64,000 nucleotides of DNA, taken from positions 372,001 through 436,000 of the forward strand of contig JAUFOQ010000005.1 of NCBI GenBank assembly GCA_040285855.1. The letters are read 5' to 3'. The translations under genes and the position numbers were made by a program. This document shows, one piece after another, positions 9,301 through 40,203 of this stretch (its first letter is position 1; each line of letters opens with the position of its first letter). The notes under the pieces were generated by a model. The model was not told the origin of the DNA, ran no database searches, and saw nothing but the letters and a program-made list of their open reading frames with translations. Origin of the DNA: Eukaryota sp. GEM-RC1 (Eukaryota).

Positions 9301-9589
9301 TCTTGAAATTCGAGACTCTTCCAACTTTTCAAAGATTTTAGGATCTTCAACTGACAAAATGTTTAAGTTCCTTAGATTGTCGACTGTGATGGGTCTACAA
9401 GTAGTTGACACCATTAAAAGATTGGGAGGCTGAGCTTCATCGGATAAAATAATTGCACATCTACCATATTGTGGCACAATTAGTCTATTAGAAGATTGAC
9501 TATGTGTCACAATTTTTTTTAATCAGAGTGGCTCGATTCCGTGCCGTTTGGTTAGACGAACGAGTGAGGTCTAAACAATCACAGTCATA

Positions 9590-10000: not shown

Positions 10001-11559
10001 TAACCAATTTTTGTCTAGAACCAACACTGTCTGGTAGGACAGCAGGATGGTTGATGGGAGGACCTTCCTCATTGCAATTGATAATAGCCGGAGTACCAAT
10101 TACAGACTTCATAAGTAGAAACTTCACTACTTGGTATGGTTCTTTAGAGTATCCAAGAGTTGTTGTAGAAACGTCCAGAAGTGTAAAAGTCACCATTTGT
10201 TAACTCAACACACTATAATTCCTTCTTTCAATGGAGAGAAAGACTCAGATGATATGGGTAAATGAGAGAAGTCCAGAGGGTTCTCAAAGCGATCTCCAAA
10301 CTCCAACCAATCAGTGGTTAATTTGATTTCATTTAAATTTGGAATTAATGTGGTTCACAAACAAAGCCTTGGTGGTTACGTCCAGCAATGTAAACGTCAC
10401 CATTTGTTAACAGAACTAGAGAATGACTATGAACAGCAGAAGCTTGTTTAATAGGATAAGGAAGATTGAAGATTAGGATGGTAAGTCACTTTGATTTAAG
10501 GGAATTTCATCGTGTTTGTTTGGAAAAACACCTTGACTGTTATGTTACCAAATTCAAGTGGTCAATGAGTTTGTCCACTTGGAAGTAGTGGACGAGATAG
10601 TAGAAGTCATAAGCATTGCTCTCATTGAGGGTGAAAGATTGTCCGAAGAAGGATTTGAACAACTCTTCAACATAAAACCTTGAAGTTTTTAAAATATAAT
10701 ATTTTCCAAGGATTCGATTGCAATTGATGAAGTAACATTGTCAAAAACAAGTTTCACTGAAGTCATCTAGATCAATTGAATCACGTTTCCAATCAAAGAT
10801 CCTAGTAACAATGAGTTTGTGGGAAAATAGAGTCAGCATCCACAACAAGAGAGGTAGAGGAAGATGAAGAAGAGAGATCAGAACGTAACGTACCTCCATT
10901 AAGTAGAAGCGTATCAGTTATAGTGAGAGTTGAGTGATCTTTGAAGAGGAGAACGACATTGGTGGACAGATTTAGAGAAGATATAGTGACGTGATCATCA
11001 ATAGTGACTGCTTATCATTGTAAGTGTTTTTACAACAAAGTGTTTGTCTCTTGGTGGTCAACTTCTAGTAAGTTAACTTTTACTTCACAAATAACTTTCT
11101 GCAACTTTTATTTGCATATTTAATCCACAAAATTTCATAACCAATAATCATCAACTTTGAGTGCTTCTTTTTGTGTAACATTTTGTATCATATGTTAACT
11201 GTATTGGTCAATTAATAGAATCATCACACTTTTCAAAATTTAGTCATGCTTTGACGTAAATGAATAGTTAACCTCATTTACAAATATAATATAAAATATA
11301 TATATGGAAGACCAATAAAACTTCTACAAAGAGTCATTTACAGGATCAGCGTTTGGTCTGAACTGCAACATCAAGATAACCACCCCCTAACGACTACTTA
11401 CTTTCGCAACGATTCTCAGCTGGATTCAGAAGACTTTCTACATATACTTTTTTTGGTGATTTTGGGATAAACATCGAGTCTGATAACTTAGAATTGGCTT
11501 CGTCATTTAACGGTCGTTATGATCACTTTTCTTCTTTTGCTGGGAATTGAATGCTCTCT

Positions 11560-12879: not shown

Positions 12880-13153
12880 TATTGACCAAAGGTTTCAAGT
12901 TTTTCGATAGTAAAGCAGTTGTACATGGAGATCTCAAGCCAGAAAAAACGTGTTGATTGTGGATGATAGAATCAGAATTGCTGATTTCGGAACTTCTAGA
13001 AACATTGAATCAACTTCAACCGTTCCAAGAACTAATGCAATGACTGTTCGTTATGCCGCTCCAGAACAATTCGACAACATGATCACTCCTCAAAGTGACA
13101 TCTACTCACTTGGAATTATCTTGTATGAATTGTTCCAAAACAAAAGGATCTAA
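12880..13153 (+). pseudogene. Protein kinase fragment, truncated where the Fanzor-bearing element begins
   Basis: VVHGDLKPE (frameshift) VLIVDDRIRIADFGTSRN...YAAPEQF...SDIYSLGIILYEL. Similarity stops at ~13150. Confidence 0.85.
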
Positions 13154-13679: not shown

Positions 13680-13724
13680 CATGATTTAACCACGGACGGA
13701 GACATAGAGTTCAATCCAGGACCT
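13680..13724 (+). other. 2A-like (StopGo) ribosome-skipping motif
   Basis: HDLTTDGDIEFNPGP matches D(V/I)ExNPGP with the typical DLTxxGD upstream context. Confidence 0.75.
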
Positions 13725-13765
13725 CATCTTACAGATGAGCAACTGAGATCCGTTTTGCACCAAAC

Positions 13766-14365
13766 GTAGACAATATCGACACGTTAGAGCCCAACGTCTG
13801 GGTTAATGATGATGATGTCATCGACTTATACGGTGATTTTCTAACAAAAAGCAGCAGTTGTTGTAAGTACTTTCAAATCAATGACATGATTGGTGCTTTT
13901 GGTGTTTATTATTTTCAATTATTATTAAAAAAGTTCGATTACCTAATTACTTCAATGAATGATTGTGTTCCGAAGAAACGACTTATATTCATGCCAATCA
14001 ACGATGGCCTTTTCGGTAAAACTCCGACTCATTGGACACTTCTAATTTGCGACATTAAGATCAAACGACTTTTTTCAATCGATTCAACGTATACTGAAGA
14101 AGAACACTTCAAACAACTGGCGACTACAATTCGAACTTCTCGCAATGAAACAGTAGTCCAACGTTTACAGCAAGATTTGTTTAATGACGCAGATTACATG
14201 TATATGGATAAACTAGTTGTAAAGCAAGAGCAAACTAAACACGATTGTGGACCTTTTATTCTAATGTACATTCAAAAGTGTGTTGCCTTAACAGACTCAT
14301 CTATTGATTGTTCATCTATCGATTTTAAAGAAATTATAGCCAAACTCGTAACTATGATGCTCTAA
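13766..14365 (+). pseudogene. Ulp1/SENP (C48) cysteine protease domain 1
   Basis: IDTLEPNVWVNDDDVIDLYG, FMPIN...THWTLLICD...SIDS, QEQTKHDCGPFILMY (His-Asp-Gln-Cys). One frameshift from the 2A frame. Confidence 0.85.
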
Positions 14366-14367
14366 AA

Positions 14368-15534
14368 ATGCGGAAAGAAGCTTTGACTCATTTTATATCT
14401 ACTCAATCAGCAGAGAGGGCTGAACGTGCTAGAGAAGTATTAAGGCAACGGTTTCCTACAGAAACCCAACAAGTGCCATTGACTACTCCTAATCAACTTC
14501 TCAACTCAAATCGTACAAGAAAAAGAACATCTTCTCGTCAATCTAGAAAACAACCTCCAAAAAAGAAGAAATTTTCTCAAAAATCTCAAATTATACAACA
14601 TCAACATCGTGGAATTCTAACACAATCTCGTCCTAGACCTCTCATACTTAGATCACGTGATCAAATTGACTCACTGAAACCCAATGTGCTGCTTCATGAT
14701 TCTGTCATTGACTTTTTTGGTCAGTACATTGCTGAAAAGAGTAATCCATGCGAGTTCTTTGAAGTAGCCAACATTCAAGATGCAGTCAATCTTTCACAGT
14801 ATAACATAATGTTTGAACAATTTAGAGAGGTTCAATTATCAATGGGCAAATCCAGTAAAAGACACACTAAAAAGTGTAAGAAACGTTTCTTGTTTATTTC
14901 AATACATGACGGTCTCTTTGGTACAACAGCCACTCACTGGTCACTCTAAATCTGTGATATTGAAAATAAACAATACTTCTCTATTGACTCAATGTGTACA
15001 GCAGATCAACATTCTCAGTTTTCTAACACTTTATCACGTATTGACAATGTCATTTCACAATTACAACAATTCCTGTTTGATATGGCAAATTTCAGCTATA
15101 CAGCCAGAGTACCAGTTCAACAAGTCCAAACTCTTAATGACTGTGGTCTATTTATTCTAATGTATATGAATAAATTTGTCGAGTGTGAATCAACATCAAC
15201 AAGTCTTTTCGAAATTCTGTCTCAAGTCGCTAATTGTATTGTTTATAATGCATTAGAAATGAGAAAACAAATACTGTCTCAAATCGTTACTACTCACCCT
15301 GATGAATACCGACAATATGTATGTACTCATGCCCAAGGTATTTTAAATGAGTTTTATACTGATGAGATTGAATCACCTGTTAATCAACCTGTACAGTGTC
15401 AATCTGAAAGTTTAACTCCTGAAACAATGGCAGATGATAGTAATTACAAGGAAACGGTATCAAAGCTCACCTATCAAAACTTTCTGAAAAGTTTACCTGG
15501 AAATTTGTCTAATCGGAAAAGAGGCGTCTTTTGA
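14368..15534 (+). pseudogene. Ulp1/SENP (C48) protease domain 2 plus linkers
   Basis: IDSLKPNVLLHDSVIDFFG, THWSL*ICD..SIDS (in-frame TAA at 14947), QVQTLNDCGLFILMY. A clear tandem paralog of domain 1. Confidence 0.85.
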
Positions 15535-16487
15535 AGTTCAAAATGATTGAACAAGCGCTGAAAGGGGCTGGAGAATTGTTTCAAGAAAGTTATAATAACT
15601 TTAGTCGTCCAGAGTTGACAGATCTTCCAGAAATTAATTTATCAACTCCAAAAATAAATGTTGCTGCTTGTGAGAAACCTGATACAACAGAAACAACAGC
15701 AGCAACAGTTAATAGTAAGACAACAGTTGCCAAAAGGAAAACCACCAAACCAAAAGCAAGTGGAGTATCCAATGCGACAAAGAGTTTGAAACCTCCTAAG
15801 AAGCCAATGGTTGAGTTTCTCAAACATTCCCAATTACCAAAAAACTCTAATCATTGTTCCATATTGTCTTTTGATATTGAAACTAGAGAAATTGATCAAA
15901 TCCCTGCAGAGACAGTTCCAGAGGAGTTGGATGATCAAAGAAAGAACGAGAATGAATCTCTCAAAATGAAAAGTGATGCAGAAAGAGAAGTGTGGATTGA
16001 AAATCAACAAGTATTTATGATTTCTGGAGTGTTTGGTCATTTTATAAAAGATCAATTTTACTTTCAAGACAATTTTGTTGCAACTTATGAGTTGACTCAT
16101 GAATCTGATGTTGAACTGCCACCTGATTGTAGAACCCTTCGATTTTTTGAAGACGAAAAACAGTTACTAGAGTTTTTTGTCAACTATTTGAATGATAAAA
16201 CACCTTCTATGTTAACTGGATTTAACATCACTGACTTCGATAATGTTGTTTTAGACAAAAGGATTGATACACTTGGAGTAGACTTTCCAGAACCAATGCT
16301 AGATGACACAACTAAATCTCATATATCACCTTTATGGCAGAAAGTTTGTTCTGAATGGGCTGGTAGAATTGTCTGTGATTCATACGTTTATGCTAAGCAA
16401 TTTATTGTTTCAAAATGTTCAAAATCTTTAAGAGCATTAAGTTGGTTTTTATTAAACGAATCTAAAGGACGTCTTTCAAAAGACTGA
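15531..16487 (+). pseudogene. Family-B DNA polymerase 3'-5' exonuclease-like domain (DEDD)
   Basis: ExoI ILSFDIET (~15870), FEDEKQLLEFF, ExoII LTGFNITDFD (~16218), GRIVCDSY...SLRALSWFLLNESK. ExoIII and the polymerase domain are not seen. Confidence 0.85.
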
Positions 16488-16489
16488 TC

Positions 16490-17550
16490 AAGAAGAAAAA
16501 ATGTCAAAAAAAAGAACAGACGGTGTTTCGTTGGAGACTTAGACAAGTTAAAAATGTCTTTCTTGAAGGCAACAGAAATGACACTCCAAAAACCACTGCA
16601 GAAATAAAACAATTTATTCAAAGATGCAGAAATTCTTCAAGACGACAGTAATAGAAGTTTGAACATTGCAGGTAAAATTAAACTTCTGTGGGCAACTAAC
16701 GACTATGTTGAACAATTGTTTAAAGATAAATATTTTATTGATGTTCTCTTTCCACCATCATTTGATATTCAAAATGCTAATGGTGTTTATAAAAAGAAAG
16801 TCGTTAAATCTCTACTAAAAATCAGTTCGTGAACATCCTCAATCCTTTATTAAAACTGCTTTTCAAATAAATTACTATCTTGAAAGTGAAGGAGCAAGTG
16901 CTTACAATGTAATTGGGATTGTTCGTCACGTCACACCAGGTTTCTTTGAAATAGACACACAAGGTCTTTGGGGAATATTACGTTCCACTTTGTCAACACA
17001 ACAAGTGAATGTCAAGAAGAAAATGTCTGTTTGGAATACAAAGAATGAAATTGCACACATGACTCCTGCTGAACAAAATCAATTCTGGTCACATTTTTTC
17101 AACTTTAATCGTGCATTTATAAAGAAAGGTTATAAGTTTAACAATACCATTAAAACTGATGGTTTCTCTGCTTGTGTTGAACTGACTAGAGAGGACTGTG
17201 TTGGAATGTCATTTAAACCAGACAGTGCAAAGTTCTCCAGTAAAGAAGAATATGTTCAAGACTATGATGTTGACGAGTTTTCATTGAAAACAAAAGTGTT
17301 TATTGATCCTGGAAATTCAGATTTACTCTATTTTTGTTCAGAGAAAGTAAATAAAACCCGAGAAAGAAGAGACAAAGAATACGAGTGGCCAAGATTGACA
17401 GAGACAGAATGGTCCATATGGTCAAGGGTTCATCAAAAGTTTAGAAGGGGAAAGAAAAAAGAATTCATTCTCCAAGATGGAAAAACAGTTGAACAAGAAG
17501 AGTCAACATTGTCGAAAGAAAATTCGAAGTCCACTCTTTATGACATATTG
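16490..17550 (+). pseudogene. Fanzor1 (TnpB-like RuvC nuclease), partial
   Basis: VREHPQSFIKTAFQINYYLESEG...TPGFFEIDT, FWSHFF...YKFNNTIKTDGFSACV, EEYV, RuvC-I KVFIDPGNSDLLY (~17302), GKTVEQEESTLSKENSK. RuvC-II/III not seen. Confidence 0.8.
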
Positions 17551-17986
17551 GTAAATAATAAATGGAGTTTTTTGTTTTTCATTAGCAGGAATAAGTCAGG
17601 CCAAATAACTACTGAAGATGTTTCAGATCTTCCTCTAAATGTCCTCGCCATCCAACTAAACCTCTAGAACATTTCTAGACCAAGAAGAAGTTATTACAAG
17701 AAGAATCCAAAATTATGGACAAATGTCAAATAACCAGAGTGTTTGAAAAGATAATATCATTCTAGAGTCTATTGATCCTGATTCTATCATTAAAGGTTTC
17801 CCTTCAAATGATGACGTGGATGAGTGGTTCAAAAGTTTGCTTTTAGTGGAGGGTTTTCTAGCTTGACCCCCTTGGTTTTCTGAGATTAAGGTGATAACAT
17901 AACGTCAAATGTAAAACGGATTGCATATTATATATAAATAAAAAGTCTTACATTTTGGGAATTAGTATGTGTTAATCTTAGATTTT

Positions 17987-19645
17987 AAAAAAGAAAAAAC
18001 AATAGTAAAAAAGATTCTGAGTAGTGAAAATTCCTTCCTCCACCGAGTAGAACCATTTAAACCAGTAATTAAAACAAAGAAGTGTTGAAAGAAGATGAGT
18101 AAACAACTCTCAATTAAGACTGATAATGAATAAATGAAGAAGTTGATAGGTAACTATTAAATCAGTAGCATTAACTTAAGTAGACTCAAAACTAATACTT
18201 AACAATGTTATTAGTTTAGTAAAAAGGAAATTTAGGATCCAATAATCTCCATTAATCAAGTTCTTTTGGACTCATTCAGAATAAAAAGAACAATGAACAT
18301 GGTCTTAATAAAAGCTTTTTTCGGAAAGTATATCAAAAAACACGTGTTCTATTACTTTCATTGAGAATTATACCAAGAAAGTACAACAATCAGTCAATTC
18401 AAAAGACTGTAGATTTAGGTAGTGTGAATGCTGGAAAGTAAGTAACACTGTCATTAGTGATAAATAAGGTACCTTAATAGATAGTAACTCATGTTAGACA
18501 TTCGAATCAGAGTTTTCTTGAGATTGAAGTGATGACCTAAATCAGTGGTGAGTACTAGTGTTTGACAAGTAGAGAGTCACAAAGGTCAGGAGACGAGAGA
18601 ACTGGCAAGACATTACTTTGAGAGGGAGAAAGAAGGAAGGAATTGAAGGAGTGTGAAGGACGAGGAGAAGCCACAGAGCTTGGAGGTGGAGATTCACCAG
18701 TTTTAGTTAAAGGAATTGAGAGAAACTTCAGACTGGTAAACACGTTCTTATGTAGTTGTTGGATTCAGATCAAACGATACTTTTGCATCTCTGTAGGAGT
18801 TTGATTGGTCACAGCGACGTGAAGATGGAACATCGAAAGGACTTTGAGAAGAAGTAGATCAAGAAAAGAAAGAGTTGTATCTCCAATTGAATCGGATTGA
18901 GCAGTAGAATCGTGGCGCGCCACTAAGAGCGTCCCATTTTGATCAGGAGAAGGTTACAGGTATGACATTGTGAGGAGAGGACATGAACTTGTCTCTTTGA
19001 TTCAACTCTCTCAAACTTCACATTTATGTTCTTTGCTCTACAATGTTGCTCTACTCGTCTACTCTCTTCTTCACTTCTCTATTAGTTCACAACGGAGGAT
19101 CAATTATCTCATTTACAGACCAATTCTTCTTCGTCAATTGAGTGTTGTGTACGTGACACGTTACCAGAAGTAATCCTTGACACGTGTTAACACGGTGTTA
19201 GGAAACATGTTTGTTGTTATCATACTCTAGTTGAGTCTGTTCTCTAACTTTTTCTTGATTAAACATCTATACTTGAGACTATTTCTCGATTCAACTACCT
19301 ACATGTCTATTTCTCTTGGATAACCTGATCATTCTTTGAGTTTCATGTTTGTTACTTTACTTTGGATTCCTGGTTGATCACGTCATCAATTCAATCACTT
19401 CATACTGATTGGTTTCTTTCAAGTTCAATGATCTCTTGGTCTCACACTTTTTTAAATTGTTAGGACCTCTAACTTAGGTATCATTTATTGTATTTCCATG
19501 TATACTGCCATTTTGTTTTGGTCCACGAACAATTCTTAAGTTTACGTCTTCATTCTAGTTCAATTGCTTCCATTATTTGATTTGAAACTCAAGAAGATTG
19601 TTCATGATAGATATTCCACTACTTTGTTGGAAGTAATTTCCAGCA
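17987..19645 (-). repeat. Block A partial inverted copy
   Basis: Reverse complement of ~7476..8990 and 47880..49370 (e.g. CACGTGTTAACACGGTGTTAGGAAAC). Confidence 0.85.
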
Positions 19646-24194: not shown

Positions 24195-25480
24195 CTTTTA
24201 TTATGAAAAAGAACGGATTTATGTGCGGAGAAAAACGCACAACAAGAAAACAACATATAAATTCAGAAAATTAAAACAAATTATCAAACGAACTACCTAA
24301 TTCCGAAAAGTAGTTGCCTCCAAACAACTTGGACAAAATGGAATTAATATATCTATACATAGACCTGAACATCGAAAAAGTAAATTTGCTCTTCCAGTAC
24401 GGTCTGTTAAACTACTTGCCAAATTCTGAACACAAATTTTCAAATAAATTTAAAAACTCCTTGGTCGAAGAACCGAAATTACCGTACAAAGTAACTACAA
24501 AAGGCTGAAAGACGATATTCTTGTGTCTTCGTGGATTCAATGCAGCAACTTGATGTACGTACTTAGACACTTTAGCGTTCTCAGCGTCTTTCAGCGGATC
24601 ATTTGAAGTATTCAAAATATTGGCAATAACTGAAGCTTTGCAAGGATCAACGGTCGTAAAATCAACAACAATTTCTTGGCATGACAACCAATGGCCAATA
24701 AAATCACCACGTTTCTGAGTAGAATCAGGGTGATCTGAAAGATGAGAAAGTAACGGTTCAACTTTGCCATGGAAACCATTCGCCTTAAACATTTCCAAAC
24801 ATGTATCTCGAAGACTGTTGTGCAACATAGAACGGCAATATATGTATTTTGAACAATTGACCAAATGATGAAAGCTTTTTGTTTGTTTTTACAGATACAC
24901 ATGCTGTTCTGTAACACACCAAATGGCCAAAAACATAAACGAAGTCTCATATTAACAAACCATTCATGATCTTTTGGATTAAAAAGAAATCCCCCTGACA
25001 ATAGAGTAATGAAAGTAGATGCTGAGTCACTACTCATGTCTTGTAAAAATGCACAGAAAGCAGAACTTTTACCTTTAGGCAAGCTAATGCAGTTAGTATA
25101 GTCCAAGCTCTCATAGAAAGATACAAATTTGTTCTGCAATTTTTTAACACCAAGAGGAAGGGAAAAAAGCGTACGTTGAGGTGTTTCAGTCACAGATGCA
25201 GGAAACAAGGATTCCCAAACATCAGGGTTCATACCATCTACAAGATTTTGAAGTGCTATAAGTCAGTGACAAGGCCAATATCGAATGAAATCTTCATTAG
25301 ACCAAAGTAAAGGATAACGTAACTCAAATTCATAGCAGATTCTTCAAGCATCCTACAAAGGCGTTTTCACGTATATAACGAGCTCCGGAAAACCCAATTC
25401 CACCAAATCTAACAGCAGCAAATGAATGACGATGAATGGAAAGCTTTTTCGACTCTACCAGCTCTGACAAAAACTCTGTT
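24195..25480 (-). mobile_element. 5'-truncated RLE-type (CRE-like) non-LTR retrotransposon
   Basis: RT thumb AVRFGGIGF, MRLRLCFW, CCHC finger (CICKN...HLVNC), MLHNSLRD, PD-(D/E)xK endonuclease KRGD...VVDFTTVDP...AENAKVSKY...FQPFVVTLYGNFG. Frameshifted. Confidence 0.85.
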
Positions 25481-25564
25481 CTCAAAGACTAATTATGATG
25501 TGTAATTTAGTAACCACCATCAAAGCACTGTTTTTTGGCTGGTGGAAATAAATCAAAAAGAGAA

Positions 25565-25658
25565 TGCAGCGACATGGAATCGAACCATGGTTATTGCGAG
25601 GATTTGTCCGTGTCAAAGAGTGTTCAGTCAATGCTTGCCGTATTATGCATGAAGCTGC
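25565..25658 (-). ncRNA. tRNA-like element (imperfect) with B-box and T-run
   Basis: Perfect T-arm CATGG-TTCGATT-CCATG followed by TCGCTGCA, which can pair with GCAGC at 25658. D-arm-like TGCATAATACGGCAAGCA, and TTTTT 6 nt downstream. Anticodon arm irregular. Confidence 0.45.
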
Positions 25659-25682
25659 TTCTCCAGAAGGCGCTCCTCGTTT

Positions 25683-25761
25683 CATCTGGTTTTAGCAACG
25701 GTTTCCCGTAGTTGTCCCGGAGTTTCTCATAAGTTCTTCCCGTGTTACTCACCCGTTCGTC
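25683..25761 (-). other. Bacterial 16S rRNA-like fragment (approx. E. coli 105-180, helices 7/8)
   Basis: GACGAACGGGTGAGTAACACG...AACTT...ACTCCGGGACAACTACGGGAAACCGTTGCTAAAACCAGAT versus the 16S pattern GGCGAACGGGTGAGTAACACGT...AACCT...GGGAYAAC...GGAAAC...GCTAATACCGGAT. Confidence 0.65.
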
Positions 25762-26049
25762 GGTTTCTCCCAGTTGCGTTCCGTGATGTAATTGGCTGGT
25801 TTGTGATCCATACCGTCCAATTGTACAAAGCGCTTGTGAACCAGGATGGCGTTCAAATGATTACTGCTTCCGGAACACCTCCAGTGCCTAAGGCTGCTTA
25901 CTCTTGTGATGGATCAGATCTCGTTGTGGATGTCATTTCAGTAATGAAGAACGTGTTAAGCTTGCTAACACAACCTTTAACAAATGTAGGAATGTCGGAT
26001 GATCTAGCTGATGCCATAACTTACTCTAATTTCTTTTCCACTTGTATTT

Positions 26050-27430
26050 CCGTTTCTTCTTTCGATGAATAATCGGATCTGGACATGTGATTCCATGATT
26101 GTGAGTGTTTTCACCAAATGTTCTCCCTTAGCACACTTAGAGCAACACTTACTGGTTCGGTACTCATCCACAAGAGAAATCTTGAACCCTGCTTTTCTAA
26201 ATAGCTTCCTCATTGATTTTCCTTTAATTGTTGGAAGAAAACCTTTAGAGCCAAAAGCAGAGTCATCCCAATCGCCAAGAACTTTGTTTGGTTCACAAAG
26301 ATTTTCTCGAAACGGATGATCATTTGGTCTTCTCCCCGTTTCTTGTTGGAGTACAACTGAAGTTGTCTCTTTCTAAACCAAGTTGAGCTGTATAAATTGC
26401 AAGTTCTCAAGTTGAATAATTCTTTTTGATAGATGTACTCACAAAACTCTTCACGAACACAAGATTGTTTTTGTCCTTGATTGACAGCAGCAGAGAAGAG
26501 ATTAGTTGTATCTTTACCAGTTACATCGAGCCAGGTTGTCAATTCAAGCTTTCGTTGTTCTGTTTTACGGTATTTCTTGAATTTGGATTCGTAGTTACGT
26601 TCCCCATGAGTATAAACAAACTTTTTAAACTTGTCTGTTTGTTCTCATTTTAACATCTTCAGATACTTGAACTTCTGGTTTGGGTGTTCTTTTGTTTCTT
26701 CTGTTTTAATGATACGATTGGGTGGCTTTCGTGGTCTTGTGGTTGCATCTGTTTTAATTCCTTCTTTTCTAATTCCTCAGTAGATTTTTCTGTGCCAGCA
26801 ACAATTGGGGCATACTTATTTGGATCAATACCCACCAGAGTTCTATCTTTTAGATTTAATTCCTCAAGATCAGTGACTGTTAAATCATCCAGTTACTTTT
26901 CTTCAGTTTGCAATTGAATTGTAGAGTATTGTTTTCCTACTAAATCGTTTCTTTGTAAAACAAGTGAAACCGAAACACCATCAGTTTGAAATTCACTTTG
27001 AATTGAGTTTGTAAAGGAGTAAATTTGTCTTAGTACATTTGAAGCATCCAGCATCTCTGTTAAGTAGGGAATCCCAAATTTCTGTTCCATTTTGAATAGA
27101 ATGGGTTCAATAAAATTTCTTTGTTTGTTATGTTACAATTTTCTCCCCAGAAATTTTGGATTCTAAATCTTGCACTTCAGCCATGGCTTTGTTTGAAAAA
27201 ATTACCAAATACAACTTTAGTGTCAACTCTAAAATGCTGTGGAATGACAGTCTCTGTTAAAGGAAGACAATTTGGAATACTGCAAGGATTTCCTCTTTCA
27301 TCAGTTTCAGCTCTTCCAAGCCTTGTTGTAAAAATTGCAGGAGACAACAACTTCACTGGATGTACCTTTTGAGAATAGAATAAGTTTTTATCTTTGACAA
27401 ATAGTGAAGTAAAATGATCTTTCAGATATA
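26050..27430 (-). pseudogene. Fanzor1 (TnpB-like RuvC nuclease), frameshifted
   Basis: CLPLTETVIPQHFRVDT, EFQTDGVSVSLVLQRNDLVGK, RuvC-I LVGIDPN (26821), FRKRQLQLYSNKKRGEDQM, VLGDW...PTIKGKSMRKLFRKAGFKISLVDEYRTSKCCSKC. RuvC-III not seen. Confidence 0.88.
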
Positions 27431-27449
27431 TTTTAAAATTCCAAAAGTC

Positions 27450-28140
27450 TACTAAGTGATGACATAATTCCACATCATTAATACAATATCAAGCAAGAGA
27501 CGTTCGGTCTTCATCTGAACCATTCCACAAACGACAAATTTCCTTCAACTTGGCTAAAGTACTTTGATTTCTCAACATTTCACAACCTTGACTCTTGTAC
27601 TTAGTTTGAAGACGAACTTTCTCATCTTTAGATAAAATATACAATTTTTGAACTTGTGAACCTTCAAACAGATATGAAACAACATTTTCCGATGATATAC
27701 CTCCGGGAAATGTAAAAGTAGAACGTAAAAGATGATACAAATTCAGAGACAAAATAGAAGCAAGGTTTGACTTTTCAGCCCATCTTTGAAAAAACATGGA
27801 CAACAAACAGAACCTTCACCCAGTTTAATTAAGAAATTGATGTTCACATCAAGCAGTTGACGAATAATAAACGGTAAATCAAATGAATTACAATTGTAAC
27901 CACAAATGGGTTTTGGCTTTTCCAATTTCAGTAGATCAATAAATTTCACCAACATTTCCTTTTCATTTTCAAAAGCACATCTTCAACATTCAGAATATCA
28001 GTAAGAACTGATTTACAAGTATACAAGAAATTTCTTGACTCTTGTAAATGATGTTCAACAATATTTACAAGTTGAACTGCAATCTGGAAAATTGAATCAT
28101 TTTCAAAGTCGGGTTTCAAATTATCTGGTTTTTCAGAAAG
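27450..28140 (-). pseudogene. Family-B DNA polymerase 3'-5' exonuclease-like domain
   Basis: PDFENDSIFQIAV, FENEKEMLVKFIDLL, ExoII ICGYNCNSFDLPFII (~27880), ExoIII LA*YCINDVEL (27474-27488). Confidence 0.85.
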
Positions 28141-28629
28141 ATTGGTTTGTCTTCTGGTTCGAGGTCATCATCTTGAGAAACATTGAGGCAATTGACGGCT
28201 GGGACTCTTTCAGGATCAAAAGGAGCTCCACTTCTTTGTAATAACACATCCAGCAAGAGAAAACAATGGTTCAGAAGGTGTACTTGTGGTTTGAATAGAG
28301 AATATCTGTGTTTATATTATAGTCAAATTATAATTGTAACATCCTGAAACGATTTTGCATTTAGGACTATTTATGTGTTTAGAGAAATCAGTGGTGTTAT
28401 ACAGAGGTCAGACACAATATTCCATATGGATACACTATTTCACTAGAACAAAATTCGTCGACAAAATTTCCGCGAAAACTCAAAAATAATCCGTCGACTC
28501 GACGACGACGACGACGACGACGGAGAAATGAAATACGAACGTCGACGATTCGTTGATGATTGTTGGTAGCGAATTCGTCATGTCTAGAAAATTGTTTGTT
28601 CAAATATTTCTCATAAGATGAAAAGCAAT

Positions 28630-29976
28630 GCTCTCTTCTTCTGTTCTTTATCCCCTCTTCACTCACGCTCTTACTGAAGACACGAAACAACCAAAAAGGA
28701 CTTGCATTTTCAGCAAAGCTTGTTGATTTTGACTCATCTTCACTTCTTGAAACGTCTCTTAAAGTCTTCTTCTGAAGTGGATTATGACGATCCTGGTCGT
28801 CATTTCCTTAATTTGAAGAAACAATTGCACACATTCTTTAAGAAACTTGGCTATGTATCTCGTCGCTTCTTTGAAACTGCTCGTCTAACTGTCAAGGTGT
28901 ATATCCAGACATACACGTTTCATTTAGTTCCTGACGTTCTTCCTCAACTACATGTATTTGCTTCCTTCTTTGGAGCAGAGGTACAGTCTGTTTTCTTACA
29001 CGTGACCCAGAACTTTAGAGTTCAAGAACTTCTCCATTACTCTAATATAATATCAGGTTTGTTTTTGACATTAGAAAACTCTACTGACTTGGAGTTCCTC
29101 AATAACTCTTCTTCGTTCTTTCCACGTCTTAAACAGCTTCATGTGCGTGTTGATTCTTCTATTTCTTTGTTGTTAATTGAATTGTTAAAAGTCAATACTA
29201 CGGTCACAAGTATTGACCTGGAAGAAACTTTGCTTGGTCCAGCAGGTGCTAGAGCTTTAGCGGATATGTTGAAAATTAATGATACAATGGAAAGTGTAAA
29301 TGTAAGCTACAACTCTATTGGAGATGAAGGTGCAACAGCATTATCAGAAGCGTTGAAAATTAATACTACATTATCAATAATCAATTTGAATTTCAATTCC
29401 ATTGGAGATGAAGGTGCTACTGAATTGGCAGAGGCATTAACAGTTAATACTACGGTGAAAAAAATTGATTTGAGTGGGAATTATTTTGGGGTTGAGGGTG
29501 CTAGAGCTTTAGCGGATATGTTGAAAATTAATGCTACAGTTGAGAGTGTAAATTTGAGTTACAACTCCCTTGAAGATGATGGTGCTGGAGCATTGGTAGA
29601 TGCATTAACTGTTAACACTACAGTTACACGTGTTATTCTGTGGGATATATCTATTACAGACGAAAGTGCAACCGCATTTGCAATTTTGTTAAAACTTAAT
29701 ATTTCAGTAACAAGTATTGATTTGAGTGGAAACTCTATTGGAACTGAAGGAGCTATATCGTTAGCAGAAGCGTTACATGTAAATAATACTGTTGTGAGTG
29801 TGAATTTAAGTGACAACTTTATTGATGACGCAGGTGCTATCGCTTTGGCAAATGCTTTGAAAGTTAATACTACAGTGACTATTGATTTGACTGGAAATCC
29901 TATTACAGATGAATGTGCTATATCACTGGCAGATGTGTTAAACGTAAATGGCACAGTTAAAATATCAACAAGTTGA
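28630..29976 (+). CDS. NLRC3/RI-like LRR protein (5' end frameshifted or disrupted)
   Basis: Family N-domain HFQQSLLILTHLHFLKRL...FFPRLKQLHV plus ~9 28-aa repeats LKVNTTxxxIxLxxNSIGxEGAxALA. Confidence 0.8.
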
Positions 29977-31273
29977 TCTTAATTCGATTTTTATGCTTAA
30001 TATACCCTAAGTTTACGTTCATTTTATCGTGATGAAAACTACTTAATTAGATGTTTCTATAACTCGATTAAGTGATTTTAGGTGATTCGATGTTATCAAT
30101 TGTTACACAGTCTTTTCAGGTTTTTTGATTCCTACCATTTCAAGTAAATGCGTAAAAATATTACAGTTGTTGTTCAGCCACAACAAAGCTGACAATACGT
30201 AGAGTCCAGCTGATCATCCTCATAGATGTATTTATTTACTAATACATCGAAGTTGTTGGAAAAACTAATCTGGATACAGACATAACATTTGAAAACACGT
30301 TTATTGAACAAACTTAGATTCATATTATTGCATTATTGATCACACTTACAAACCCTTTTGTTTAGAGAAATACAAAAACAGGAATCAGCTACATACAACC
30401 AGATAGGGCCAAGGTCTGGTTTAAAGCACTCCCTTAATGTAGAGTGTCTACAAAGGAGGCGCTGCAAAGGAGAAGTGATTGCAAGCAGTGGAGGAAGATG
30501 TCCTGGAACTGTGAGAAGCATGTAGGTGTCAGTTTGAAAGAAGCGTTGAACAGCTGAAAAGCCACAGTCATAGAGGCGTTGACTCACAAAGCCCGCAGTC
30601 ACACGGAATAAGGACAAACTGTGTACCAAGAAAGAAAAGAGTAGGAGGAGGGGATTCAGTGAAGTCTGCGTAAAAGGCGGTTACCATCTAGACGAATTCT
30701 TCCGGCGACGCGATGAAGTATAGATTGATCGAAATCAAGACCGAGGGATAAGCGTTGAGGTGTCATAGCGTCAGGATAGCAGAAGGGAAGAACATTCAGA
30801 GAGAGGAAACATCACTCCGGAATCCGGTATATCACCATGAGAAAGACGACTCTTTTTAAGTGGAGGATCAGTGAAAGTGATGTGGATTCAATCAAGGAAA
30901 CAACATCTGTTTTGAGAGATTCAACCGATCACAGATGCATGACTACAGATTAATCAAGAACTAATAGGTGGTACCACAACATCAGATAGAGATTGTGCAA
31001 GTTCTTTGCTGTTCCTCTTGAATTGACTTGAAAAGACTACCACTAGTAATAGGTCAACACAATCCCATTGTCACACTGATCGTGGAAGATTACTGAACGC
31101 AAAAAGAATATTGTTTCGAGGCTTTTTAAACAACAGAATATGGACATAGGAGACACAGAAGAAGACGGATCATGATAATCTTACCACACCATTGGTTACT
31201 CACTCAAGTTTCTTCAATTCAATTAAGAAGATTGGACCTCAGAAGGAATCAAAGAAATCTAGAATCACCCTCA

Positions 31274-33073
31274 ATGGCCTCTTATCCCTTTATTAAGACA
31301 TTTAGGACAACTCACGTTCCGATCTCTTCTGTCCGCTGCCTTGAATGCTGCGATCAATGGATATCTAGTACATCTCCTTGTAAGCTGTCCTCCTCTTCTT
31401 ATCTCACATCCCCTCCCTTTGTATCGTTCCTGCCGTCGATTACTCGTCAAAGCAACATCACTCGCAAGTCAATTTTCTTCCAACAGTCCATAGTTGTGTC
31501 GATCCTCCTGCATTCCCTCAAACGTCTCTGTAAATCTCCTGGAGAAGTCAATTCCCGTGATCCTCGTGGTCCTCTGCGTTGTTTGAAGGAAAAACTACAC
31601 TCATTTGTTCAGAATGTTGGTTACGTTGGCCAACGTTTCTTTGAATCATCTTTTACTGCAATTCAGTTGTTTGTTGGTGCAAACTCGTTCTCTGTTGCTT
31701 CGGAAGACCTTGTCCAACTCTCCTCAATCACTTCCCTCTTTGGAGCAGAGATTAGCTCTGTTTTCTTAAACGTTGCGGAATTGTTTAAGGTCGAAGATTG
31801 CCGACAGCATTGTAACAAAATTTCAAGATTAAATGTTACCTTGAATGTAGCAAATGATTTAAGATTCCTCAACAAATCGTGTCCTCTGTACTTTCCTCAT
31901 CTTCAACGACTTAATGTACGTGTTGATTCATCTATTTTACAGACATTTGTGGGAACTTTGAAATTTAATTTTACAATTGTTCAAATTGACCTTCGGAATA
32001 ACTCTATTGGCGTTCACGGTGCCAGAGCATTAGCTGAAGCCTTGAAATTTAATCGTTCAATTACTAAGATTAATCTGGGGAATAACTCTATTGGAGCTGA
32101 AGGAGCGGTTCTACTAGCGGATGCACTGGAAATGAACTCTACAATTACTAAGATTGATTTTTCTGGTAATTCTTCCAAAAATGAAGGTGCGATTGCTTTG
32201 GGATATGCTTTGAGAATTAACTCTACAATTACTAAGATTGATTTATCTCTAAACTCCATCGGAGACAAGGGATTAAGGGCTTTGGCTGGTGCTCTGAAAG
32301 TAAATTCTTCAATTAATCAAATTAATCTAGCCTATAACTGTAATGGTTATAAAGGTGTTAGAGCATTGGCTGATGCGTTGAAAGTGAATTCTTCAGTGTC
32401 ACAAATTAATCTAGCTTACAATTCTAATGGAGATAAAGCTGTAAGAGCATTGGCTGATGCTTTGAAGGAAAACTCTTCAATTACTCATCTTAACTTAGCC
32501 TATAACTCTGTTGGAACTAAAGGTGCTCTAGCTTTGGCTGATGCTTTAAAAGTCAATTCTTCAGTTTTAGAAATTAATCTGTCTGCTAATGCAATTGGTG
32601 ATGATGGTACTGTAGCCTTGGCTGACGCTTTAAGATTAAATTCTTCTCTTCTTAAGATTAATTTAGAAAATAATTCAATTAGTTGTGAAGGTACAATAGC
32701 ATTGGCCGAAATGTTGAAGGTTAAATCCACACTTAATGTAATTAATCTACGGAATAACTATATCAATACTGAAGGAATACTATCATTGGCTGCTGGTTTG
32801 AGATTGAATTCTTCTATTAATGTGATTAATCTAGAAAATATTTCTATTGATGCTGAAGGAGCTACAGCCTTGGGTGAAATGTTAAAGGTTAATTCTACTA
32901 TCAGTACAATTAATTTACGGGACAACTCTATTGGGAACGAAGCAGCTCTCTTATTGGCGGATGCTTTGAATCAAAACTCTACAATTGTCAAGATTTCTGT
33001 AGGCTTTATGTCTCTTGACTCTCAAACAAAACAACTCCTGAGGAAAATGTCAAATGATCGAATCTCGTGTTAA
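31274..33073 (+). CDS. NLRC3/RI-like LRR protein (intact, ~599 aa)
   Basis: Same N-domain plus ~13 RI-like 28-aa LRRs. ATG at 31274. Confidence 0.88.
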   Translation: MASYPFIKTFRTTHVPISSVRCLECCDQWISSTSPCKLSSSSYLTSPPFVSFLPSITRQSNITRKSIFFQQSIVVSILLHSLKRLCKSPGEVNSRDPRGPLRCLKEKLHSFVQNVGYVGQRFFESSFTAIQLFVGANSFSVASEDLVQLSSITSLFGAEISSVFLNVAELFKVEDCRQHCNKISRLNVTLNVANDLRFLNKSCPLYFPHLQRLNVRVDSSILQTFVGTLKFNFTIVQIDLRNNSIGVHGARALAEALKFNRSITKINLGNNSIGAEGAVLLADALEMNSTITKIDFSGNSSKNEGAIALGYALRINSTITKIDLSLNSIGDKGLRALAGALKVNSSINQINLAYNCNGYKGVRALADALKVNSSVSQINLAYNSNGDKAVRALADALKENSSITHLNLAYNSVGTKGALALADALKVNSSVLEINLSANAIGDDGTVALADALRLNSSLLKINLENNSISCEGTIALAEMLKVKSTLNVINLRNNYINTEGILSLAAGLRLNSSINVINLENISIDAEGATALGEMLKVNSTISTINLRDNSIGNEAALLLADALNQNSTIVKISVGFMSLDSQTKQLLRKMSNDRISC

Positions 33074-33314
33074 TTTTGTAATGTTAAGACATTGTCTAAA
33101 TTAGTTTTTATTGTTTCATTTTATTAGTTAATTATTCTTTTTACTGTGGTGGGTATTGTGTTCAACACTCACTGAATAAGTTTGAACAAGAAATGGAATC
33201 ACCGTAGTTTGTTTGTGTAATAAAATTGTGTTATGTAACAGTGTAACATTAAAACTGTTTATTTCAAAAAAAATATCGAGGAGAATTATTCTTACTGTAA
33301 ACAAATCTATCGAC

Positions 33315-34900
33315 ATGTTCACCAACCTCTCAATTGGTGTTTCCCACCCAAAACTCTACCCCAAAAATACCATGATTGACCTAATACATGAACATGGCGG
33401 TGTACATGGCGTACATGGCGACCATTTACATCTGCTAATCTGCTCTTCCTCTGAATTGTCCAGAGAAACTAAGTTATACCACCAAGCTCTTGCTCAAGAT
33501 GTTCCCATTGTGTCTGAAGATTGGTTTGAAGCTGCCTTCAGGAGAATTACCCTTGGTCAATCAATTTCCAACTCAACTATGTTCTTCTCAACGTCACTGT
33601 CTTTCCCCTGTACTAACTCTCACTTCACTCGCTGAAAAGACTCTTAATCGCGAGCAGCTTCACTTTGTACTCTCTGAATCTGATTTGGTGTATAAAACCT
33701 TGCAAGCCAATACTCAACTTCTTGTTTGCTCTGGAAACAGAAGCCACCAAAACACCTCCCCCTCCCTATACTCTCCACTGCCCATTCTCGTCAAATACCC
33801 ATTGTAACCACTGCATGGATCACAGAGTCCTTTGCTTCCAAGAAACTCATTGACTACTCACGTCATCTACTCACTCCCTTGTATCCCACTTACAATCATG
33901 AGGCCAAACGATCACGTCTCTCTCCTAATGTTGAACCTCTAGATCATCCTGGCTTTCTCTTCAACATTCTTCTAGGTTCTCACTTCAAGTTTCCCATACT
34001 TAAACCACGACTTCTTTTGGCTCTTCATTGGCTCTTAGGAACAGAAGAACAATCAAAAATGATTTGGGACCGAAACAAATCAATGTTTGGGGCTTTTGTT
34101 GATCGTTCTCCAACTGGAATTTACGAACGTAAAAACTTTTCCAAAAAATTCATCAGTAAGACTTGCTCAACAAAGAGGGCTTTGACAGACTTTAATCTTT
34201 CTGTATTAGAGTTGAAGCCTCTGCATCACTCTTATCACGGCTATAATTTGATTGAAGTGAAGGAACTTTCCTTTTTTAAACATGGTCTTGATGACTATAG
34301 AAGAGTTAGGGACAGAAGAGAGAAGTTTCTGTTCAGAAAGCAAGAAATTCGTGATGAAAGAGTCTCATTTATTCACCATTATTTACGGTCTACTTTGAAT
34401 TTCAATGACTTTTTGTTTACATCAAAGATCATTAATTCTAAATATTGCTCTGATTTTCTAGCGAATGGTAAAGGTAAATCTAATATGAAATCACAATTAA
34501 ACAAGTTTGTTTTTATATATAACCTAACCAATCACTGCTCAGACTCTGATAGAGAACTTGTTATTCAACGTCTTAAAGATACTGAAGAAGTGACGGAAGA
34601 GATGGTTTCACAAGAAGTTCGCACAGTTATTTGGAATCGAAAATATGGTAATAGAGCTGACTTTTTCTTCACAATTCAAACACAAAAAAGTGGGTATGTT
34701 GAGGGATTTATATCTGACCTTGATATGGAAAACTTCATGAAAAAGTTTAAAGAAGAAAGAAAAACTAACTGAAGATCTTATTGAAAGTCTCACTGTAAAT
34801 TGCTCAAAAACTGTAAAGTCGATGGTTCTTAATCGACTTCAAAAAATTGAAATAGTTACAGAAGAATTAATTGCAGAGGAGATTCGTCGAGCTGGAACTT
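33315..34900 (+). pseudogene. BRCT/XPA-C-like family copy 2 (frameshifted)
   Basis: High identity to 244..2060, with frameshifts near 33538, 33733-33765 and 34765. Confidence 0.8.
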
Positions 34901-37437: not shown

Positions 37438-39960
37438 CTACAGTAAATGTATTTTTACAAAACCATCTCCATCATTACTTCCACTAGTATTTACTGGATT
37501 TAATCCTGAATTGAAAGATCCAGCTCCATACGAGGGGTATGTATTGTTGAACTGAGCATGAGGGACTACACTACCCCCGGTATACCCCCCGCCTCCGCCT
37601 CCTTCATGTCTGGCACCTCCACCACCACCAAATCCTCCGTCAGCTCTTTTAGAATAATTAGTATCACTTTGACCACCCATTCCTCCATTAAGAAAGGACT
37701 TACCTCCAGTACTATTACCATCAGTTCTATTCTGACCATCAAGAGCGAATCCACCTCCACCACTACCTCTTCCTCCTTTGCCAACACCTTCAGTGAAATC
37801 TACTCTACCATTAGGTCCGTTTGTAGTCCATCGGGACTTATTCTGCCCATTACCACCTCCTGCAACTATTAAAGGAGAAGAATTCAAAACAACAAAGGAA
37901 CCACCTCCACCTCCTCCGGCGGCATTACCATTGCCTTGAGCATCACACCCGACCTGACCAACCAATATTTTAATAATTTGACCAGATTTCAATTCAAACT
38001 CACCAATCATTACTGCTCCTTTTCCAGGTTTAGTTGAAGTGTTATAACCATTATTACCACCTCTAGCTCCAGCACATTCAATTCTATACATTCCAGTTAA
38101 AGGTACAGTCCAATGTTGAATCCCATCAATAACATTAAAATTTTGAATATTTTTAAAATATTCATGATTATAAGCACCAATACAGTCCTCAAGAGAAGGC
38201 CCAGTTCTACCTGTTTTTCCTGCATTGGTAAAGGTAAATGGGAAAGGAACCGAAAACATGAAAAACTCCTTATATTGAGAGTTAGTTAGTGATAATTGAG
38301 AGTTACTTTGCTTTAAAGTGGCGACATTCTTTTCTAACTCGGATTTGTCATTAGATAAAGTCTGAATGGTATCGTCAGATGCCTTTTTTTGCTGTGAAAG
38401 ATCCGAGAATTTAACCTGTTGAAATGTCAGAACAATTAAAGCATTATCAGCAAAATACTTTTGGAAGAATTGACACAGTTTTGAATCATTTTTTAATTCT
38501 GCAAATATTTCGAAAATAGCAACAGGATCTGTCACCTTCAAATCAAAACCATTCACACATTCATGAAATACGTCAACATCCCAATCAAAATATCTCCAAG
38601 AATCAACAAGACTTTTGGCCAAAAACTTGGAATAATCAGATGTAACTGAAGGAGAAAGAAGTTTGAAAGCTAAAGGTGATGGAGAAAATCCTTGAAAACT
38701 ATGTAGAAACTCAAAAGGAACAACTTTCATAAAATTGACAACAAAATATTCCAGATCAGATTTAGCTCTATCAGCAGCTTGAAAAGTCCATAAAAACCAA
38801 TGAGGGGGAATTTTGTCCAATTGTTTAATATTTGAAAAAGTATCCACTGACCATTGTGATAAAACAGACTCAAAAGATTTTTCATCAAATAAAGGTTGAA
38901 TTAAAGTGTACAAATTGTTGTAATCAAATTGATGAATATCAATTAAAATTAAAATGGAATTTAGTTCTTCACCATTTAACTCTTGATTTTTAAAAGTTTC
39001 TAAAAGACATTGAAAAAGCCACCAATGATCAACAATAGGAAACAACCTTTGAAGTATTTCAACAGACAATGGTAATGAATCCAGTTTCAAGGGTTGAGAA
39101 AGATTTTTAAAAATATTTAAAATTTCTTCAACAAAGTGAACTTGATTACGAACATTTGCTGAATTCAAAAGTGACAATAATTCCAAATCAGTAAAAGTAT
39201 TTGTCAGTAAAAACGTCTTACAAGCTTCCAAAAGCTCTGGAACTTGGAAATAAAAGGACAATTGATAAAAACTTAAAACAGTTGAAATATTGAGCTTAAT
39301 TGAATCTGAATAGAACAAATTAAAAAATTGTTCAAAAATATTTTCTTCTACTCCTACGAATTCAGATTCATAAGTGATTTTTCGATCGTTTGAATCAATA
39401 AAACTAGTAGAGAATTGGTTCAGAAAAGTTGCTGACGTGGCAACTAAAATTAGGGAATTTGTTTGAAGGTGTACTTCCTTGTAAGTAATTGACACGTCAC
39501 TAGGAGCAAACTTTCTAAAATTAGACACAATCACGTCGTGATTTAATTGGAAAGTAAACGTTTCCTTCAAGTTCAATTCAGATGCAATAAGGGAGAAAAT
39601 AAAATCATAGAGATGTGTGTATTTGAGACAAGAAGCAACGACACCGAGCGGGGGAAGTTCTTGAGCGGAAAAAGAGACGCTTTGGCCATAGAAAGAGCCC
39701 AAGACTTTGAAGAAGAGAGAGGAATCGGGAAGTAAATGGAAAAGGAGATCGAGACCATCTACTTTGGAGGAAGAAAACAGTTTGGTTTGAAGAAGTTCAC
39801 TGAAGAGAGAAACGACGGCAGAATGACAAGGAAACTGGTCATCGTGAAGGGAAATGGAGGAGTCAATGAGAACACCTTCTTTACGAAGACTACAAAGCTT
39901 TGCAGTGATTGTAGAAGGAGGGAAGGCGAAGGTTTTGGTAGGAGAAGATTCAGTCCCCAT
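37438..39960 (-). CDS. Tandem BTB/POZ protein with coiled coil and C-terminal ALK/LTK-type glycine-rich domain (~840 aa)
   Basis: BTB1 LRKEGVLIDSSI...FPCHSAVVSLFSELL, BTB2 SDVSITY...NSLILVATS...YFQVPELLEAC, then FTNAGKTGRTGP...GIQHWTVPLTGMYRIECAGARGG...ILVGQ...GGFGGGGG...GFVKI. Confidence 0.85.
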   Translation of the reverse strand: MGTESSPTKTFAFPPSTITAKLCSLRKEGVLIDSSISLHDDQFPCHSAVVSLFSELLQTKLFSSSKVDGLDLLFHLLPDSSLFFKVLGSFYGQSVSFSAQELPPLGVVASCLKYTHLYDFIFSLIASELNLKETFTFQLNHDVIVSNFRKFAPSDVSITYKEVHLQTNSLILVATSATFLNQFSTSFIDSNDRKITYESEFVGVEENIFEQFFNLFYSDSIKLNISTVLSFYQLSFYFQVPELLEACKTFLLTNTFTDLELLSLLNSANVRNQVHFVEEILNIFKNLSQPLKLDSLPLSVEILQRLFPIVDHWWLFQCLLETFKNQELNGEELNSILILIDIHQFDYNNLYTLIQPLFDEKSFESVLSQWSVDTFSNIKQLDKIPPHWFLWTFQAADRAKSDLEYFVVNFMKVVPFEFLHSFQGFSPSPLAFKLLSPSVTSDYSKFLAKSLVDSWRYFDWDVDVFHECVNGFDLKVTDPVAIFEIFAELKNDSKLCQFFQKYFADNALIVLTFQQVKFSDLSQQKKASDDTIQTLSNDKSELEKNVATLKQSNSQLSLTNSQYKEFFMFSVPFPFTFTNAGKTGRTGPSLEDCIGAYNHEYFKNIQNFNVIDGIQHWTVPLTGMYRIECAGARGGNNGYNTSTKPGKGAVMIGEFELKSGQIIKILVGQVGCDAQGNGNAAGGGGGGSFVVLNSSPLIVAGGGNGQNKSRWTTNGPNGRVDFTEGVGKGGRGSGGGGFALDGQNRTDGNSTGGKSFLNGGMGGQSDTNYSKRADGGFGGGGGARHEGGGGGGYTGGSVVPHAQFNNTYPSYGAGSFNSGLNPVNTSGSNDGDGFVKIHLL

Positions 39961-40203
39961 ATCAACTTGAATCAAGATGGAATGAATTTGAACCAGTGTA
40001 AATGCGCGCTTTTTCCACAAACGCACATACAATTGCGCCGTTTATTTACTCTTACAAATACAAACTATCATCAATATTAACAAATGAGATACAAATACCT
40101 CTACATCATCTCAAATTCATGTCTCTTAGCAAAGAGACTATTCAAAATCGAATCAAAATACCTAAACAAAGCTTTTAAAAGGGAAAACGACAACCTTCCA
40201 CTC

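Follow-up and report, generated by a model that had tools for sequence, protein, structure and literature searches.

The window analysed here, a 64,000-nucleotide stretch of contig JAUFOQ010000005.1 from Eukaryota sp. GEM-RC1, holds two broken elements, designated F1 and F2, in which an exonuclease domain of the family B DNA polymerase (PolB) type lies next to a Fanzor1 nuclease (Table 1). F2, on the minus strand, is the main subject of this work. F1, the second broken element (13701-17556, forward strand), is arranged as a 2A-like motif followed by two Ulp1/C48 protease domains, a PolB exonuclease and Fanzor1, and belongs to the sister clade of the F2 family. A motif of the form D[VI]ExNPGP, as found at the start of F1, is expected in the window by chance at a frequency of 2.5e-5. 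The junction between exonuclease and Fanzor1 in F1 has been lost to a separate, out-of-frame deletion which took ExoIII, WED-I and the early part of REC, the alignment to the related protein P0002 jumping from residue 1089 to residue 1279 at 16475/16448.

In F2, ExoI is decayed and not recognisable by alignment, with a possible remnant, 'LLDV', detected near 28250 by eye only. No RuvC-III could be recognised downstream of the first CxxC, and a 2A-like motif is absent from what remains of the element. In the F2 family, RuvC-I supplies the active-site residues D and N and RuvC-II the residue E, the RuvC-II stretch of F2 itself reading DEYRTSKCC, with the rearranged glutamate placed just before the zinc finger as in Fanzor1. 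This family is known from fragments alone, namely P0176 and P0025-P0027. Repeat scans recognised no terminal repeats or target duplication around F1 or F2, no transposase linked to either element was found in the window, and the search for an omega-RNA gave no relevant Rfam match, the best fold reaching a z of -2.0 in one of the 14 segments folded. Other genes and repeats of the window are also listed in Table 1.

Table 1. Coordinates of the F1 and F2 remains and of other features in the 64,000-nucleotide window
Feature	Position	Strand	Evidence or remark
F1, 2A-like motif DIEFNPGP	13701-13724	+	Sole NPGP in the window
F1, two Ulp1/C48 protease domains, with frameshift and stop	13739-15534	+	Pfam PF02902, E 8.3e-8 and 4.3e-4
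F1, PolB exonuclease, ExoI (DIET) and ExoII, ExoIII gone	15864-16475	+	Pfam PF03104, E 3.1e-14; tblastn
F1, Fanzor1 from mid-REC to beyond RuvC-I, 3' part missing	16448-17556	+	54.5% identity to P0002 1414-1666
F2, exonuclease after ExoI	27982-28146	-	71% identity to P0176 103-157; weak local scores upstream
F2, exonuclease, ExoII GYNCNSFD (27901), frameshifts on both sides	27761-27973	-	79% identity to P0176 161-233; motif scan
F2, exonuclease C-terminal half, ExoIII YCIND at 27488-27474	27444-27794	-	83% identity to P0176 223-340
F2, deletion joint at a Trp codon, frame kept, some 260 codons of WED-I and REC gone	27441-27443	-	P0176/P0026 match boundaries; motif spacing
F2, Fanzor1 late REC into WED-II (HP...PLT..IP..FRVDT)	27189-27440	-	84.5% identity to P0026 173-256; Fanzor1 profile 233-322
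F2, Fanzor1 WED-II (TDG 26988) and RuvC-I (IDPN 26829), frameshifts, three stops	26722-27199	-	66-83% identity to P0026 254-408
F2, Fanzor1 helical segment between RuvC-I and RuvC-II	26300-26644	-	Profile positions 403-522, E 1.7e-17
F2, Fanzor1 RuvC-II (DEYRTS 26168) and first CxxC	26010-26282	-	Profile positions 526-580, E 4.7e-19; Pfam Cas12f1-like_TNB, E 0.0019
139-codon open frame, antisense to the decayed 3' end of F2	25653-26072	+	No RuvC-III recognisable there
Remains adjoining F2 downstream, same orientation	24300-25500	-	No Pfam match; Atlas 0.96 to unnamed clusters; presumably the 3' part of a non-LTR retrotransposon with restriction-like endonuclease (motifs RHN/RGD/VDFT/E..K..KY)
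Protein-kinase-like fragment immediately upstream of F1	12930-13140	+	Label presumed from motifs DFG, APE, DIYSLG
Uninterrupted IS630/Tc1-mariner-type transposase	5315-6403	-	DDE_3, E 7.2e-20, and HTH
hAT dimerisation domain, weak match	6718-7140	+	E 0.046
Repeat in three copies, about 82-97% identical, one adjoining the truncated 3' end of F1	7567-11173; 17988-19416 (inverted); 47979-51658		
BRCT-domain gene in three copies, partly frameshifted	235-2060; 33186-34772; 43314-45058		
Leucine-rich-type repeat genes, expanded family	28678-29976; 31130-33073; 55333-57949; about 62800 to window end		84-bp/28-residue units; common N-terminal region
867-residue ORF	37438-40041	-	BTB and ALK/LTK glycine-rich domains

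The joint in F2

The initial annotation had described an ExoIII motif running in one open frame into Fanzor sequence in F2, and this frame is borne out: the minus-strand ORF at 27177-27488 comprises 103 codons from stop to stop and translates as YCINDVELCHHLVDFWNFKIYLKDHF...KVHPVKLL...CLPLTETVIPQHFRVDTK. By itself, the YC..D motif is weak, with 9 occurrences observed in the six frames versus 3.9 expected. A premature TGA (27491-27489) lies immediately before YCIND, preceded by 108 open codons in that frame, and since this upstream frame, read across the one TGA, matches residues 223-340 of P0176 at 83%, YCIND can be identified as ExoIII. P0176 is itself matched by Pfam DNA_pol_B_exo1 (E 1.7e-18) and, in sequence, by human Pol delta (E 1.6e-9). 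The downstream half of the joint frame is Fanzor1, as indicated by its identity to P0026 (Table 1) and by its match to an ordinary-Fanzor1 profile built from 87 proteins (E 1.7e-9). The joint frame produced no useful alignment with profile A4 (probability 0.2%). The further claim that this frame constitutes the most direct evidence of a protein fusion is wrong, the native junction having been removed by a deletion, while the suspicion that the Fanzor REC part is short through an internal deletion proved correct, with about 260 residues missing when compared to siblings.

A search with the joint frame retrieved a single cluster (P0025-P0027), in which P0025 and P0026 match F2 from NFK on only and carry up to 172 more Fanzor REC residues before NFK. 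With the exonuclease half, P0176 was retrieved (82% identical), which matches F2 up to LVDF and then reads FLDKKLQTMLFLPAVKSVKCDLRQILK, a stretch (P0176 351-411) equivalent to positions 16-70 of the Fanzor1 profile (E 3.5e-6). The two sibling matches abut at the Trp codon 27443-27441. Since the match to P0176 stops at codon 27446-27444 and that to P0026 begins at 27440, the joint is, judged from these alignments, a deletion scar and not a native fusion. Siblings 77-88% identical to F2 place at this point the loss of WED-I and most of REC, which amounts to 89 + 172 residues provided that the sibling fragments abut, or to 253-309 residues by motif spacing; the distance from ExoIII to HP is 43 residues in F2, whereas 18 of the 19 relatives have 296-352 and the last one has 234.

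When aligned with SpuFz1, the lost part corresponds approximately to residues 1-210, in a numbering where an offset of 394 reproduces D383, E541 and D606. In SpuFz1, residues H21, T22 and K25 have been reported to contact the RNA, and R96, Q129, Q130 and N133 the TAM (PMC10432273). Equivalents of all seven fall within the part deleted from F2. The coding sequence of F2 also contains six frame changes and four stops, for which reason the copy is considered dead, and F2 is read as a decayed copy of a mobile element with an in-frame deletion at the joint. It is scarcely credible, and already contradicted, that the shortened frame should be a functional miniature exonuclease-Fanzor: although the deletion is in frame, random chance would produce this in one case out of three, and such a protein would have to tolerate the TGA immediately upstream, the frame changes and stops just mentioned and the loss of its RNA- and TAM-binding residues.

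Exonuclease and Fanzor1 in related proteins

Comparison with other copies indicates that the fusion exists in the family, through protein gene models and not through the F2 joint, and we are highly confident that it is real there, the native joint being known from gene models alone. A search with P0004 against 1.84 billion representatives gave 1103 matches, of which the best 150 were taken. Among 194 proteins, 28 were detected at E 2.3e-26 or lower by an exonuclease profile for which 7 of these 28 had served as input; in the remaining 166, the strongest score was E 0.0037. Each of the 28 comes from a record named Eukaryota sp. TZLM3-RCL, TZLM1-RC or GEM-RC1, and TZLM3-RCL and GEM-RC are named as Skoliomonas metamonads in PMC11316075. 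The relatives of F1 include long single-chain models (P0002, with 1846 residues, P0003 and P0004). In the F2 family, P0176 runs from ExoIII into a true Fanzor1 N-terminus and, against a profile of the sister clade, gives an unbroken alignment through ExoII, ExoIII and WED-I (probability 97.2%, 221 columns). The motifs ExoI (DxE), ExoII (NxxxFD) and ExoIII (YxxxD) are conserved across subfamilies, being all present in P0176 and in the 10 of the 28 exonuclease-bearing proteins, from the sister clade, which retain all six exonuclease and RuvC motifs; F2 keeps ExoII and ExoIII. According to the initial annotation, a stop or polymerase domain between ExoIII and Fanzor in other copies would speak against the fusion; at the protein level, this is not what the relatives show: 24 of 25 ExoIII-bearing relatives reach WED-I, no family B polymerase domain follows the exonuclease and no DNA_pol_B match was obtained in the 23 proteins scanned.

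The distance from the ExoIII tyrosine to the WED-I lysine or arginine is also conserved, measuring 29 residues in 23 of 25 proteins and 33 in P0176, while P0001 is devoid of the WED-I basic residue; the WED-I motif list behind this count was chosen after inspection of the sequences. Exonucleases of the sister clade share 26-49% identity with one another and 19-24% with P0176, and the 29-residue linker is common to subfamilies whose exonucleases are about 30% identical. These observations bear on the possibility that the fused proteins are gene-model artefacts, with neighbouring ORFs joined through predicted introns. The records appear to have been annotated with an AUGUSTUS pipeline applied to nanopore assemblies (PMC11316075, linked by strain names), and P0009, which carries an N-terminal DEAH helicase, looks like, and probably is, a merged gene model. 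An artefact is nevertheless very unlikely for the fusion as such, given that the same linker length recurs in 23 proteins, which span several subfamilies and three records, with 33 residues in the distant F2 family, and that the DNA of the window is collinear with the models on either side of the joint.

Several of these proteins have further features of a polyprotein. An exact D(V/I)ExNPGP motif is present in F1, P0002, P0007, P0021, P0188 and P0191, and a variant 2A-like motif in P0176, P0091, P0180, P0181 and P0014; the polyproteins also carry Ulp1 proteases. The position of the motif differs: in P0191 it follows a protease remnant, in P0002 it precedes the proteases, and in P0176 it stands a short way ahead of the exonuclease. 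The presence of both a 2A motif and Ulp1 domains suggests a polyprotein-type Fanzor element that has gone undescribed. In such an element, the exonuclease could be an independent passenger like Ulp1 which does not act on Fanzor targets, in keeping with the variable order in which polyproteins gather accessory domains (C48 after or before the 2A motif) and with DnaQ-like exonucleases being known passengers of LTR elements (PMC6338049). This is quite unlikely, as the proteases are variable and lie behind long low-complexity linkers, whereas the exonuclease is held to Fanzor by a fixed linker of 29-33 residues that is free of any 2A motif.

A predicted structure was used to assess whether WED and REC are complete, which they are in the relative P0004 and not in the F2 copy. 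The AlphaFold2 model of P0004 (105 aligned sequences, pLDDT 83.5, pTM 0.75) superposes with residues 1-243 on human Pol delta 313-528 (Z 15.8, rmsd 3.4, 185 aligned) and with residues 248-940 on SpuFz1 18-631 (Z 27.1, rmsd 4.2, 566 aligned). A single-sequence fold of P0176 (pLDDT 34.8) was left out. According to the model, P0004 is a PolB exonuclease (1-243) followed by a complete Fanzor1 (248-940), and because of these superpositions on PolB proofreading domains and SpuFz1, intact members are predicted to have complete WED and REC and no polymerase domain. The catalytic triad of P0004, composed of D, E and N, aligns to D383, E541 and D606 of SpuFz1, with DERYTSS aligned to E541, the rearranged RuvC-II glutamate. 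RuvC-III reads WNRNK in all 12 exonuclease-bearing proteins extending that far. Across 144 proteins, the RuvC-III residue is D in 106 and N in 30, mostly from the sister clade, with no match in 8. The C-terminal layout of Fanzor1, D-x(125-275)-[TS][TS]xx-C4 zinc finger-x(5-50)-RD (PMC3627910), is likewise found in the sister clade, but with RN instead of RD in these 12 proteins. The asparagine was considered as a sign of a dead nuclease and this was dropped: GtFz1 is reported to be active with D-E-N, that is, with asparagine at the third catalytic position, and SpuFz1 D606N to cut better than the wild type (PMC11423790). By analogy with these two enzymes, the sister clade is predicted to be active. 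The D-E-N triad extends beyond this clade, since P0039, P0057 and P0152, Fanzor1 proteins without exonuclease, also show asparagine at RuvC-III.

With regard to the origin of the fusion, the sister clade is monophyletic, with FastTree support of 1.0 (72 rows) and SH-aLRT of 100 (36 rows, once 4 clade rows that were redundant or short and 32 of the 60 ordinary ones had been dropped). P0026 falls outside this clade in unconstrained trees, a placement flagged as a long-branch join. Two independent fusions were considered in view of this placement, but a tree in which P0026 and the sister clade are kept together gains 22.66 log units (p-AU 0.823), so a single origin is not rejected. It is favoured, without being proven, by the 2A motif, the insert after ExoI and the joint that both families have in common. 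As to relatives elsewhere, no related DNA was confirmed in viral or metagenome contigs, in scans that need short near-exact peptides and so constitute weak evidence. An Atlas search with P0004 1-420 returned PolB-exonuclease clusters only (0.80-0.81), to be taken as leads only, and in a phage tblastn with P0176 only the exonuclease region was matched, the best 10 of 527 records being DNA polymerases or unannotated.

Possible role of the exonuclease

The reading preferred here is that the intact relatives of F2, as annotated, combine a PolB 3'-5' exonuclease and, directly after it, a complete Fanzor1 in one protein, where the exonuclease likely trims the end produced by the RNA-guided cut, a proposal which taken as a whole stands at about even chances. 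Of its parts, action of the exonuclease on the cut DNA end is fairly probable, and its specific use in tail removal for homing-type repair is somewhat short of an even prospect. Cuts by four Fanzors have been reported to fall 14-19 bases from the TAM on the non-target strand and 9-21 bases from it on the target strand (PMC10432273). Once loaded with omega-RNA, the protein would, like other Fanzors, cut an element-free site at a distance of some 14-21 bases from the TAM, and the cut non-target strand would then end in a single-stranded 3' tail of about 16 bases that has no counterpart at the junction on the TAM side of an element-bearing copy. This 3' tail would have to go before copying of the element could start. 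The exonuclease may remove it back towards the TAM, a task to which it appears suited because it would be anchored at WED-I, next to the TAM. Removal of the tail would block re-ligation and yield a 3' end that could serve as primer when the element is copied. Related activities have been described: cutting of empty donor joints by TnpB promotes transposon retention (10.1101/2023.03.14.532601), and proofreading exonucleases work on broken ends both in intron homing, in the case of T4 43Exo (PMC2988022, PMC12153337), and in yeast copying repair, in the case of Pol delta (PMC9477423).

The same anatomy would serve equally if the fusion were real and the exonuclease just enlarged the lesion, destroying element-free or competing sites without copy repair. 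Engineered exonuclease-nuclease fusions are reported to raise editing or deletion yields (PMC12337685, PMC13370227), but loss of its own empty site alone does not spread an element. Near-identical multi-copy clusters, with 10, 6, 4 and 3 members, suggest mobility and recent copying on sequence grounds, and lesion enlargement without repair is considered rather unlikely.

A different substrate can also be envisaged. DEDDy enzymes include RNases, and the exonuclease might mature the omega-RNA by trimming the guide 3' end transcribed from flanking DNA, which is plausible because Fanzor1 protects only a guide heteroduplex of about 15 bp (PMC11423790). We regard this as unlikely: the nearest matches in both sequence and fold are proofreading domains of DNA polymerases, none of the other 166 proteins has the exonuclease domain, ordinary Fanzor1s thus being without it, and tethering at WED-I would probably keep the exonuclease far from the free 3' end of the guide. 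In SpuFz1, WED-I T22 contacts RNA base U76, where the heteroduplex starts (PMC10432273).

Beyond trimming of the cut end, a broader picture can be drawn, somewhat less likely than not, of a natural RNA-guided cut-and-trim Fanzor1 with a D-E-N site, in which the freed strand would be erased as far as the TAM to let the element be copied into the site, delivered by a 2A-processed polyprotein together with SUMO proteases, the fusion having arisen once and diversified across a protist lineage.

Relation to known systems and significance

The P0004 model shares the full WED-REC-RuvC-zinc finger fold of the Fanzor1 proteins SpuFz1 (8GKH, 9CEU-9CEZ), PpFz1 (9CF0) and GtFz1 (9CER), with a TM of 0.79-0.80 to SpuFz1 chains and Z of 21.8-27.1 to Fanzor1 structures, and GtFz1 and the sister clade both have asparagine at the third catalytic position. 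Compared to known Fanzor1, the fusion adds about 245 residues of PolB exonuclease directly before WED-I, as well as upstream Ulp1 domains and a 2A-like motif. DEDDy ExoI-III motifs and fold (Z 14.8-15.8) are shared with the proofreading domains of family B polymerases (Pol delta, alpha, epsilon, ASFV and E. coli Pol II), Pol delta giving the best sequence matches; unlike in those enzymes, no polymerase domain follows, and a charged insert of about 45 residues occurs after ExoI in both fusion families. A D(V/I)ExNPGP-type motif near the polyprotein start is shared with 2A-bearing non-LTR retrotransposons (Ingi/L1Tc, Rex1, L2, CR1; PMC3708506), whereas the fusion polyproteins have no APE or reverse transcriptase domain. 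In T4 intron homing (I-TevI, 43Exo and DexA), a homing-type nuclease is likewise aided by a PolB 3'-5' exonuclease, although in T4 a phage protein distinct from the nuclease provides the exonuclease and the target is recognised by protein, while in the fusion family the link is covalent and the role a proposed one. Engineered TREX2-SpCas9 and T5-exo CasMINI also pair a programmable cutter with an end-trimming enzyme; these are artificial, whereas the Fanzor1 fusion is natural and employs a PolB-type domain.

No description of an exonuclease-Fanzor fusion was found in the literature searched, which left subscription journals mostly uncovered. The word 'exonuclease' is absent from the main texts of PMC3627910, PMC10711439, PMC10530073, PMC10432273 and PMC11423790 and from the text supplements of PMC10530073 and PMC10711439, the first of these two mentioning 'various domains' for its Fig. 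S1B. 'Fanzor' is likewise absent from the literature on these protists among the matches listed.

If the proposal is true, these proteins would represent a ready-made nuclease-exonuclease of about 940 residues, a combination which editors build artificially in order to alter repair outcomes, and the role of the fusion could be tested with one point mutant. On the question of why eukaryotic transposons keep Fanzor, the covalent attachment of a catalytically conserved end-processing enzyme points to the events that follow the cut.
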